NCBI GenBank assembly: GCA_945888475.1
Contig: CAMDAB010000004.1
Location: 4,678 to 68,677 of the forward strand
From: Saprospira grandis DSM 2844
Lineage (GTDB): Bacteria > Bacteroidota > Bacteroidia > Chitinophagales > Saprospiraceae
Direction: 5' to 3'
DNA length: 64,000 nucleotides
The notes beneath the pieces were generated by a model. The model was given only the letters and a program-made list of their open reading frames with translations, made no database searches and had not been told where the DNA came from. This document shows positions 59,333 to 61,182 of the stretch, in pieces. The translations under genes and the position numbers were made by a program. Positions within the stretch are counted from its first letter, which is position 1, and the number at the start of each line of letters is the position of its first letter.

Positions 59333-59953
59333 ATGGAGACACCCAAAGAATATAAAAATGAAGTAAAGTCGATGAAACTAGAAGAGCCTGACCTTGCTGG
59401 CACTTACAGCTATGCTGATTATTTAAAATGGACCTTTGAAGGCATGGTGGAATTGATCAATGGTAAGATTTTTAAAATGTCACCCGCGCCAAGTTCATCG
59501 CATCAAAGTATATCTGTAAATCTTACCGTTGAAATCGGAGGATTTCTTAAGCATAAGAAATGTAAAGTGTTTATCGCGCCTTTTGATGTGCGCCTTTCAA
59601 AATTCAAAGTAGATAAACTAATAGACACTGTAGTTCAACCCGATTTGTGCATTATTTGCGACCCTGCAAAGATTGATGAAAAAGGCTGTAATGGCGCTCC
59701 CGATATGATTGTTGAAATTCTTTCGCCATCAACAGCTCAAAGAGATTTGGATCTGAAATTCAAATTATATGAAGAAAATGCTGTGAAGGAATATTGGATT
59801 GTTCAGCCAAATGATCAGACCGTCTCTGTTTTCGACCTTATAGATTCAAAATTTTTACTGAGGGGAATTTATCACAGAAAGAACATTGTTGAAGTGAAAA
59901 CTATTGGACTGGATATTGACTTAAATGAAGTTTTTCCAATCAAAGACTCATAA
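59333..59953 (+). CDS. Uma2-family (DUF820) PD-(D/E)XK endonuclease, copy 1
   Basis: ELINGKIFKMSPAPSSSHQ...QPDLCIICD...APDMIVEILSPST...EYWIV motifs. Confidence 0.7.
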   Translation: METPKEYKNEVKSMKLEEPDLAGTYSYADYLKWTFEGMVELINGKIFKMSPAPSSSHQSISVNLTVEIGGFLKHKKCKVFIAPFDVRLSKFKVDKLIDTVVQPDLCIICDPAKIDEKGCNGAPDMIVEILSPSTAQRDLDLKFKLYEENAVKEYWIVQPNDQTVSVFDLIDSKFLLRGIYHRKNIVEVKTIGLDIDLNEVFPIKDS

Positions 59954-59954
59954 A

Positions 59955-60575
59955 ATGAAAAAGCTAAAAGAATATAAAGGCGAAGTCAAGTCGTCGTATG
60001 CTGAGGAACCAGATCTTGCGGGCAATTACAACTACTCCGATTATCTGCAATGGACCTTTGAGGGTATGGTGGAATTGATTAATGGTAAGATTTTTAAGAT
60101 GTCGCCGGCGCCAAGTTCATCGCATCAGTTTTTGTCAGGCAATTTATTTGGAATATTGTGGAATTATCTAAAAGGAATGCCATGTCAGATTGTCTCAGCT
60201 CCTTTCGATGTGCGCCTTTCAAAATTCAAAGAAGATAAATTGATTGATTCGGTTGTTCAACCTGATTTGTGCATTATTTGCGACCCAACAAAGATTGACG
60301 AAAAAGGCTGCAATGGCGCTCCCGATATGATAGTTGAAATTCTTTCGCCATCAACAGCTCAAAGAGATTTGGATCTGAAATTCAAATTGTATGAAGAAAA
60401 TGCTGTGAAGGAATATTGGATTGTTCAGCCAAATGATCAGACCGTCTCTGTTTTCGACCTTATAGATTCAAAATTTACGCTGAGGGGAATTTATCACAGA
60501 AAGAATATTATTAAAGTAAAAACTATTGGACTTGATATTGACTTAAATGAAGTTTTTCCAATCAAAGACTCATAA
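59955..60575 (+). CDS. Uma2-family PD-(D/E)XK endonuclease, copy 2
   Basis: Same motifs. Its 3' half is nucleotide-identical to copy 1 over a long stretch. Start taken at MKKLKEYKG, 1 nt after the copy 1 stop. Confidence 0.7.
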   Translation: MKKLKEYKGEVKSSYAEEPDLAGNYNYSDYLQWTFEGMVELINGKIFKMSPAPSSSHQFLSGNLFGILWNYLKGMPCQIVSAPFDVRLSKFKEDKLIDSVVQPDLCIICDPTKIDEKGCNGAPDMIVEILSPSTAQRDLDLKFKLYEENAVKEYWIVQPNDQTVSVFDLIDSKFTLRGIYHRKNIIKVKTIGLDIDLNEVFPIKDS

Positions 60576-60576
60576 A

Positions 60577-61182
60577 ATGAAAAAGCTAAAAGATTATAAA
60601 GGCGAAGTCAAGTCGTCGAATGCTGAGGAACCAGACCTTGCAGGCTATTACAACTATGCCGATTACCTGCAATGGACCTTTGAGGGTATGGTGGAATTGA
60701 TCAATGGTAAGATTTTTAAGATGGCCCCGGCGCCTTCATCTGGACATCAGGTAATATTGATGGAATTGTCAGGTATCTGTTGGCAGCATTTAAAAGGGAA
60801 TAAATGTAAAACATTTGTTGCTCCATTTGATGTAAGACTATCAAAATTCAAAGAAGATAAATTGATTGATTCGGTTGTTCAACCTGATTTGTGTATCATT
60901 TGCGACCCAACAAAGATTGACGAAAAAGGCTGCAATGGCGCTCCCGATATGGTGATAGAAATCCTTTCTCCTTTCAGTGAAGAAAGAGATACAAAACTCA
61001 AATATAAACTCTATGAGGAAAATGGCGTGATGGAGTATTGGATTGTTAATCCCCATGAAGCGTCTGTAAAAGTCTATGATTTGGTTGAAAACAAATATGA
61101 ATGTAGAGCTATCTATCATTCTAAGCAACAAGTCGAAGTAAAAACAATTGGCCTTTTGGTAAAATTAAATGAGATATTCTGA
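60577..61182 (+). CDS. Uma2-family PD-(D/E)XK endonuclease, copy 3, more divergent
   Basis: Same motifs. Starts 1 nt after the copy 2 stop. Confidence 0.7.
   Translation: MKKLKDYKGEVKSSNAEEPDLAGYYNYADYLQWTFEGMVELINGKIFKMAPAPSSGHQVILMELSGICWQHLKGNKCKTFVAPFDVRLSKFKEDKLIDSVVQPDLCIICDPTKIDEKGCNGAPDMVIEILSPFSEERDTKLKYKLYEENGVMEYWIVNPHEASVKVYDLVENKYECRAIYHSKQQVEVKTIGLLVKLNEIF

Follow-up and report, generated by a model that had tools for sequence, protein, structure and literature searches.

How can adjacent genes of one family be nearly identical over long stretches and still differ sharply in one short internal patch, and what might such a row of genes do for its host? This question is raised by three genes in a stretch of 64,000 nucleotides (nt) of contig CAMDAB010000004.1, from Saprospira grandis DSM 2844; the whole of this stretch is referred to here as the window. 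The three genes are same-strand, paralogous open reading frames of the Uma2 family (PF05685), encoding 206, 206 and 201 amino acids (aa). The comparisons presented below argue strongly that the array evolved by unequal crossing-over together with gene conversion, as a classical tandem family does, and that a short module around the first helix of the protein has moved between copies in the manner of a cassette. The first-pass annotation of this DNA described three tandem Uma2-family genes lying 1 nt apart downstream of a gene for a homologue of major vault protein (MVP). The open reading frames, the Pfam matches, the TAA-A-ATG junctions and the MVP-like gene at 56680–59163 all agree with that description. 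With a gathering cut-off of 27 bits, Pfam scored copies 1, 2 and 3 at 111.1, 108.0 and 102.4 bits, the matches covering positions 2–164 of the 172 in the profile.

59333–59953, + strand: Uma2 copy 1, 206 aa, with the first-copy leader METPKEYKNEVKSM, module type A and an "internal-type" C-terminal half.
59951–59957, + strand: junction 1, TAA A ATG (copy 1 stop, 1 nt, copy 2 start).
59955–60575, + strand: Uma2 copy 2, a 206-aa mosaic with a helix module of its own, type B.
60573–60579, + strand: junction 2, TAA A ATG (copy 2 stop, 1 nt, copy 3 start).
60577–61182, + strand: Uma2 copy 3, 201 aa, with an internal-type leader, module type C and a "last-copy" C-terminal half.

The copies recognized one another in tblastn searches with E-values of 1e-93 to 1e-114, and tblastn found no further Uma2 copy in the 64-kb window. 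Both an offset self-comparison and families of direct repeats spaced 622 nt apart gave the array a repeat period of 622 nt. Each unit of this length holds the end of one copy, a TAA-A-ATG junction and the start of the next copy, and at this offset the self-comparison gave identities of 0.87–1.00, the module excepted. Tandem Repeats Finder reported nothing at the array, probably because its periods stop at 500 nt.

59708–60951, + strand: two consecutive 622-nt repeat units (59708–60329 and 60330–60951), running from mid-gene to mid-gene.

The middle copy is a mosaic of its neighbors. Overall nucleotide identity was 83% between copies 1 and 2, 74% between copies 2 and 3 and 68% between copies 1 and 3, and it was strongly patterned along the gene. 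In the left part (gene nt 1–375, the divergent patch excluded), copy 2 tracked copy 3 through the leader, the N-terminal part and the middle, with 96.5% identity in the leader and 93.8% over nt 247–375. In the right part (nt 376–606), which makes up the C-terminal half, copy 2 tracked copy 1 at 95.7% identity, and copy 3 was only about 60% identical to either. Informative sites told the same: those uniting copies 1 and 2 against copy 3 and those uniting copies 2 and 3 against copy 1 numbered 30 and 60 on the left, and 82 and 2 on the right (Fisher p=2.5e-21). The optimal breakpoint fell after column 357, where the similarity of copy 2 passes from copy 3 to copy 1.

60311–60330, + strand: recombination breakpoint in copy 2 (gene nt 357–376, the GAPDM codons just before the strand bearing E128).

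The longest identical runs measured 87 nt between copies 1 and 2 and 54 nt between copies 2 and 3. Of 20,000 column shuffles, none or almost none gave runs of such length, and the 87-nt run was reached in none of them. The stretches of complete identity that had been reported in the 3' halves of copies 1 and 2 are thus real, and the three copies are not uniformly diverged. Two other statements of the first-pass annotation held in part. The leader MKKLK(E/D)YKGEVKSS, given there as identical in all three copies, is common to copies 2 and 3; copy 1 begins with METPKEYKNEVKSM, and its leader shares only 65% of nucleotides with those of the other two. The divergence ascribed to the N-terminal third does exist, but instead of being spread over that third it is confined to two patches, the copy 1 leader and nt ~148–264. 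To judge from these alignments, copy 2 has the makeup expected of the product of one unequal crossover in a two-gene array; both junctions would therefore be identical by descent, and so would the copy 2 and copy 3 leaders. Unequal crossing-over of this kind would alter the copy number in steps of 622 nt and gene conversion would homogenize the repeated part of the array, with the first-copy leader and the last-copy C-terminal half, which lie outside the repeat unit, staying distinct.

Related loci fit this course of events. The closest genome matches were metagenome-assembled genomes (MAGs) labeled "Saprospira sp." from a lake series, one of them about 90% identical over 5.6 kb that includes the MVP-like gene. 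The orthologous locus was taken to be the interval between the MVP-like gene and a PTPS/QueD-like gene.

L084: a complete two-copy array, in the order MVP, Uma2, Uma2, PTPS.
L083: the contig ends past the first Uma2 copy.
L044 and L002 (one MAG): the contigs break within the array.
L085: at least three copies at the locus, the last with an in-frame stop (824–1444).
L086: at least two copies plus a decayed remnant (941–1213).

Copy number at orthologous loci, for which variation had been envisaged from the start, does therefore vary. A metagenome scan for close relatives yielded only one more, L046, with at least three copies on a short contig devoid of flanks. Five tightly spaced copies were present in two relatives of about 70% identity, L001 and a JGI contig of 7.9 kb (the latter compared by its gene coordinates and by four of its five proteins), both in unrelated neighborhoods. 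Most relatives of about 50% identity had a single Uma2 gene within ±6 kb. Occasional pairs occurred in L004 and L019, and one of the two paired genes of L019 is interrupted by an internal stop (913–1503). The pseudogenized copies in L085, L086 and L019 indicate that arrays lose members as well as gain them. Homologues were found on 73 plasmid records, and in only one of 50,697 phage records.

The leader METPKEYK belongs to the first copy in every orthologous array (L083, L084 and L044), and a C-terminal half of the copy 3 type ends the arrays of L084, L002 and L085, with 95–99% nucleotide identity between strains. When all copies were compared segment by segment, the segments between the two edges proved to be homogenized. 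The edges would remain distinct because they escape conversion when the repeat unit runs from mid-gene to mid-gene. Copies 3–5 of L001 have flanks that are 96–99% identical to one another and only 78–83% identical to the copies of the window, a clear sign of concerted evolution. The two copies of L084 are identical over nt 151–375 and heavily different elsewhere, so that gene conversion is directly visible. The mosaic of copy 2, the L084 tract and the shuffle-tested identical runs together bear out the duplication or gene conversion that the first-pass annotation had proposed.

The patch that escapes this homogenization, nt ~148–264 of the gene (aa ~50–88), is only 42–50% identical at the nucleotide level in every pair of copies. 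It corresponds to a module composed of helix α1, which starts at the active-site residue H57, a turn with the invariant C77, and strand β1, which ends before the invariant D85.

59473–59604, + strand: variable module of copy 1, type A (gene nt 141–272, aa ~48–91; core aa 54–82).
60095–60226, + strand: variable module of copy 2, type B, nearest to the consensus of a 91-sequence homologue alignment.
60717–60848, + strand: variable module of copy 3, type C.

Since type B resembles the consensus of the 91 sequences, most of which are more distant relatives (50–60% identical), it may be the original version of the module. Synonymous sites of the module are saturated among the copies of the window (synonymous divergence, pS, 0.74–0.88; nonsynonymous divergence, pN, 0.37–0.43), and the flanks have pS of 0–0.6 and pN of at most 0.05. 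Because of this saturation, and because the versions recur almost unchanged across genomes, the modules are best regarded as old, discrete types, and the recent diversification of one region suggested by the first-pass annotation does not fit. Among 53 close homologues, the modules fell into 18 clusters at 70% identity, nine of them with at least two members. In gene pairs with a flank identity of 90% or more, the identity of the modules was bimodal, either 30–60% or 90–100%. Type A, found in copy 1 here, recurs at 99–100% nucleotide identity in an internal copy of L085 and of L086. The type B module of copy 2 shares 94% of its nucleotides with that of the last copy in L002 and 88% with that of L046 copy 2, and the type C module of copy 3 is 83–86% identical in nucleotides to its counterparts in L083 copy 1 and in the two L084 copies. 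Between arrays the types are combined as A-B-C, A-D-B, C-C and A-A'. The sharpest single case is the pair formed by copy 1 and L083 copy 1, which show no difference over nt 1–140, 59 of their 73 differences in nt 141–272, and few beyond; the contrast has every appearance of a clean cassette replacement, A by C. "Cassette system", a term already offered when the array was first described, is accordingly a fair description.

The module types also appear to be under selective constraint. Within type C, pN was 0.07 against a pS of 0.45–0.54, and within type A there were no nonsynonymous and 0–3 synonymous differences, which indicates that purifying selection acts within each type. In L019, which represents an independent Bacteroidia lineage, the tandem pair is about 93% identical save in α1. 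The entropy of the helix was 2.04 in the array-forming clade against 1.59 in the far more diverged, mostly single-copy relatives, and for every other segment the entropy was lower in the array-forming clade. One further feature of the type A module was recorded: within it the conserved upstream anchor TCAATGGTAAGATTT, the coding sequence of INGKIF, recurs in inverted form, with complementarity at 14 of 15 bases. The rough chance expectation of such a match in a 2.6-kb region is about 0.15, and it could be due to chance or could be a trace of the origin of the type A module.

59457–59471 and 59518–59532 (also 60701–60715): inverted 15-nt match between the anchor and the type A module.

The proteins have kept the active-site set of their family. 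The published scheme for the family active site is His ... PD ... EXX ... Lys, with the lysine relocated to the helix that follows (Feder & Bujnicki 2005, PMC551604). All three copies have H57, P103-D104, E128 and K142, none of which varies among the 91 aligned homologues, so that the catalytic residues have not been lost from any copy. The motif strings quoted in the first-pass annotation, PDMIVEILSPST for copies 1 and 2 and PDMVIEILSPFS for copy 3, do occur there; what they represent is the E128-bearing strand, that is, the half equivalent to (D/E)XK, and not the "PD" motif for which they were taken, the PD half being QP103-D104-L. The PD-(D/E)XK core, the N-terminal subdomain and the C-terminal β-hairpin are all found as in TT1808. 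In the AF2 model of copy 2 (pLDDT 88), helix α1 comprises residues 55–72 and strand β1 residues 78–81. The closest solved structure, 9Y1L, is 41–43% identical in sequence to the copies, and the structural neighbors beyond the family are the nuclease domains of the restriction enzymes DrdV, BpuSI and NgoMIV, followed by the Holliday-junction resolvase Hjc.

Four cysteines, C77, C106-x-x-C109 and C119, were also invariant, in 91 of the 91 aligned homologues, a subfamily that spans Bacteroidota, Firmicutes and Spirochaetes; they are missing from 9Y1L. This arrangement is suggestive of a structural Zn or Fe-S site, which would tie the loop that follows the PD strand to the variable module at its end.

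59561–59563, 59648–59650, 59657–59659 and 59687–59689: codons of the four invariant cysteines in copy 1; the same codons carry them in copies 2 and 3.

The three genes look co-expressed, as one tightly packed unit, because the gaps between them are 1 nt and no terminator was found inside the array, which supports the co-expressed set that had been proposed for them. Intergenic gaps in the related arrays are likewise 1 nt or 4–5 nt. A sigma-70 scan stayed at shuffle level (24 found, 21.4 expected), and no promoter is claimed; upstream of copy 1 there is no exact match to the Bacteroidetes-type TAnnTTTG, the nearest being CAAATTTG at 59300–59307. Rfam gave no RNA family in the 58.9–63.4 kb interval, and none of the NCBIfam models names the three proteins. 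An alternative in-frame ATG for copy 2, at 59925, would overlap copy 1, and the start at 59955 is favored by alignment with copy 1 and the orthologues. The frames are open for 30 nt on the 5' side of the ATGs of both copy 2 and copy 3 (59925–59954 and 60547–60576; MKFFQSKTHK...), overlapping the end of the preceding gene. Some database gene calls use the upstream start (216 aa); 59955 and 60577 align better with copy 1. Hypothetically, a +1 shift at TCA-TAA-A would fuse neighboring copies.

Taken together, we consider it rather probable that the Uma2 array is a co-transcribed, cassette-exchanging tandem whose paralogues are stand-alone, Mg-dependent DNA endonucleases, with the module setting their specificity. 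Each paralogue would work alone, probably as a homodimer, and the α1/β1 module, given its position in the predicted structure and its evolutionary pattern, would determine the specificity for a partner or a substrate. One transcript would then supply several specificities, and the module, about 100–130 nt long, passes like a cassette from copy to copy and from one array position to another. The system would be accessory and dispensable, a candidate defense nuclease or a selfish nuclease of the "solo toxin" type. Independent units are favored over a fixed hetero-oligomer because close relatives differ freely in how modules are combined and in the order of the copies. Yeast two-hybrid data from Synechocystis indicate that DUF820 proteins self-associate and that some paralogues cross-interact (PMC2779905).

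Several points weigh against this proposal. The literature searched holds no demonstrated activity or biological role for any Uma2 protein, so that both catalysis and specificity are read from sequence and structure. L084 has the same module in both copies, and copies in L085, L086 and L019 are pseudogenized; module diversity, and the array itself, would therefore be dispensable. The variability is spread around the helix and does not mark one face (helical moment 0.32). Conversion tracts could be halted simply by the high divergence of the module, in which case part of the pattern would need no selection for diversity. In none of the array contexts seen was there a linked methyltransferase, antitoxin or recognized defense gene. 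Finally, the comparison sequences are all metagenomic and perhaps not independent samples.

A more far-reaching form of the same idea is that α1/β1 is a true specificity cassette and that the Bacteroidota arrays are nuclease repertoires. Conversion between anchors at nt ~95–147 and ~247–285 would reassort at least nine ancient helix types, and selection would keep differing types together in each operon. We put this forward tentatively, as a possibility on which we would not rely.

The alternative that survives best is that the copies are redundant, selfish or decaying duplicates, in which conversion stalls at the divergent module and old differences persist neutrally. The pseudogenized and remnant copies and the repeated module of L084 are what such duplicates would leave, no linked partner genes were found, and the family has been published as proliferating selfish elements (PMC551604) or "solo toxins" (PMC2701414). 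However, conversion tracts do cross the module, both in L084 and in the comparison of copy 1 with L083 copy 1, and neutral conversion should then erase the diversity. The low pN relative to pS within each module type, the helix entropy, which is raised in the array-forming clade when the other segments show the opposite, and the same helix-only divergence in the independent lineage of L019 also speak against this alternative. We regard neutral persistence as unlikely.

Less likely again is a single hetero-oligomeric nuclease with the three proteins as its subunits, in which the helix is an interface that fixes the order of assembly and coupling matches the amounts of the subunits. The 1-nt gaps suggest coupled translation, paralogous DUF820 proteins cross-interacted in the yeast two-hybrid study mentioned above, and hydrophobic residues abound on every side of the helix. 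Yet obligate partners should co-occur, and in these arrays the type combinations and their order differ, the copy number runs from two to five, and the relatives of about 50% identity mostly carry a single copy. Stand-alone nucleases fit these observations better.

The three-copy arrangement might instead be an artifact of short-read assembly, with a chimeric middle copy built from co-existing strains. The closest relatives are MAG contigs, those of L002, L003, L044 and L083 break within the array, and copy 2 does resemble a chimera of a copy 3 5' part and a copy 1 3' part. Against this, copy 2 has a type B module of its own, present in neither neighbor. The longest exact repeat between copies, 87 nt, is shorter than the k=141 given in the names of contigs from some related assemblies, and is also below a typical short-read length. 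Contiguous arrays of three to five copies occur in independent assemblies (L046, L085, L001 and the JGI contig). An artifact is thus very unlikely. The arrays are hard to assemble all the same, because several related contigs break inside them, and tandem Uma2 arrays should be counted among the causes of contig breaks in metagenome assemblies.

Targeted mutagenesis by a diversity-generating retroelement, which the sharp localization of the variability in otherwise near-identical genes might bring to mind, is effectively refuted by the substitution pattern, since all four bases take part in the differences, which are not adenine-specific and are most frequent at third codon positions, and since discrete versions are common to several genomes almost unchanged; no extra copy of the variable patch was found in 58.9–61.5 kb, and a window-wide search for a reverse transcriptase was not made.

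The neighboring genes give little reason to place the array in a defense island, the context that the first-pass annotation drew from the proximity of the MVP homologue and of Bro-N/RhuM genes.

56680–59163, + strand: MVP-like gene, 827 aa (MVP_shoulder 104 bits, Vault_3, weak Band_7).
59184–59214, + strand: terminator-like hairpin after the MVP-like gene, a 13-bp stem followed by a T run.
61239–62834, + strand: Bro-N/RhuM block of 1.6 kb (Bro-N 61320–61697, RhuM 61807–62661).

The homologue of the eukaryotic major vault protein adjoins the Uma2 array in L083, L084 and L044, and not the five-copy arrays. We considered a functional link between MVP and Uma2 and rejected it: the MVP-like gene has its own strong terminator, a hairpin that, read by eye, is also present at the same place in L084 with minor changes, and the distant arrays lie in other contexts. 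The proximity of the two is local synteny only. The Bro-N/RhuM block, for its part, is a separate indel outside the array, because it is missing in L084 and L002, where about 60 nt of unrelated filler take its place between the last Uma2 gene and PTPS, and is decayed in L085, whose Bro-N gene has a stop codon, and in L086, which retains only a degenerate RhuM fragment. Bro-N and RhuM match the PADLOC candidate models PDC-S13/S04 and PDC-S05/S23, respectively. The 17 kb upstream of the MVP-like gene are mainly housekeeping genes, such as those for DsbD, acyl-CoA dehydrogenase, Usp and peroxiredoxin, and the other arrays adjoin genes for secreted or LRR proteins and unknown genes.

The Uma2 proteins themselves match the PADLOC model PDC-S03 with E-values of 1e-53, 7e-52 and 3e-50. 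PDC entries are candidates and not validated systems (PMC11514479), and no mention of PDC-S03 was found in the literature searched. The label "defense" comes only from these "phage defense candidate" matches; all copies match, and the arrays are not embedded among recognized defense genes, so that the case for a defense-island context is weak. A restriction-modification system was considered and dropped, as no cognate DNA methyltransferase was found beside the nucleases: there is no methyltransferase in 55.5–63.9 kb or beside the related arrays, and the nearest is a TPMT-type small-molecule methyltransferase at 46298–46876. A type II toxin-antitoxin module was set aside likewise, as no antitoxin is adjacent and the only operon neighbors are Uma2 copies; the flanking genes are the MVP-like gene with its own terminator and the Bro-N gene that is missing in orthologous loci.

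Two more distant genes deserve mention. About 14 kb from the array, and as the one exception to the mainly housekeeping content upstream of the MVP-like gene, a 1018-aa open reading frame with weak matches to a DEAD helicase and, C-terminally, to REase_MTES_1575 could encode a helicase-nuclease of the defense or repair type. About 10 kb away is a gene for a protein of about 230 aa with a faint match to the GldM C-terminal domain; a 227-aa protein with the same faint match is encoded beside the five-copy array of the JGI contig, and these GldM-like neighbors may be residual synteny.

42094–45150, − strand: 1018-aa open reading frame with helicase and nuclease matches.
49112–49804, + strand: gene for the ~230-aa GldM-like protein.
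1206–1889 of the 7.9-kb JGI contig: gene for the 227-aa GldM-like protein.

As a feature of a genome, the array is of a known kind, to which cassette-like exchange of a module is added. Uma2/DUF820 is a large family, with published counts of up to 2% of genes in some cyanobacteria, and expansions of its copy number are routinely recorded in the literature. Tandem COG4636/Uma2 paralogues, among them many pairs and, in Crocosphaera, runs of as many as four genes, were described by Feder & Bujnicki (2005, PMC551604), and Makarova, Wolf & Koonin (2009, PMC2701414) termed such tandem runs cassettes and considered the family a likely "solo toxin". The present array shares with these cassettes of Cyanobacteria and Thermus the Pfam family, the active site in its H..PD..EXX..K form, the runs of adjacent paralogues and the lack of a linked antitoxin or methylase. 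It differs in its host, a Saprospira-like member of Bacteroidota, and its subfamily differs from the closest solved structure in the four invariant cysteines. Neither paper describes mosaic genes with exchange of a module, position-specific edge copies or a copy number that is polymorphic at a single locus. We have not found α1/β1 cassette exchange, edge copies of this kind or a two-to-at-least-three polymorphism at a single locus described elsewhere, and we regard them as modest additions.

Structures are of limited help with function. Five solved entries have the Uma2 fold: 9Y1L (Leptospirillum), 6OKH (Leptospira), 3OT2 (Anabaena Ava_3926), 1WDJ (Thermus TT1808) and the more distant 3IJM. 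The first four, DUF820 structures with at least two chains, are all titled uncharacterized, hypothetical or putative, and are silent on activity. The Uma2 copies also differ from the enzymes that contain the related nuclease domains (DrdV, 7LO5; BpuSI, 3S1S; NgoMIV, 1FIU; Hjc), in that a Uma2 protein is a single domain of about 200 aa without a methyltransferase, specificity subunit or helicase partner, and in the shifted position of its catalytic lysine (PMC551604).

Tandem arrays that preserve variable cassettes are familiar from plant NLR clusters, from the shuffling of type I restriction hsdS genes and from the conversion of pilin and surface-antigen genes. The likeness to these systems lies in unequal crossing-over, homogenization of flanks, edge copies that escape it and a short, mobile, polymorphic segment. 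Unlike them, the Uma2 array has no dedicated recombinase, no invertible sites and no division into silent and expressed copies; all its members are full genes in one operon, and the exchange takes place between strains over evolutionary time and not by programmed switching.

In most respects, then, the array is an ordinary genome feature, a textbook example of how unequal crossing-over and gene conversion act on a tandem family, and it says nothing direct about function. Its value lies in the natural chimeras it has produced: close strains in which only the helix module of about 100 nt has been exchanged, at a locus where copy number goes from two to at least three. Were the module to set the specificity for a substrate or a partner, such chimeras would pinpoint the residues that matter. 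Should α1/β1 prove to be a true specificity cassette, the long-enigmatic Uma2 family would gain a testable specificity determinant, and its arrays would resemble NLR clusters and hsdS genes in the way they diversify recognition.

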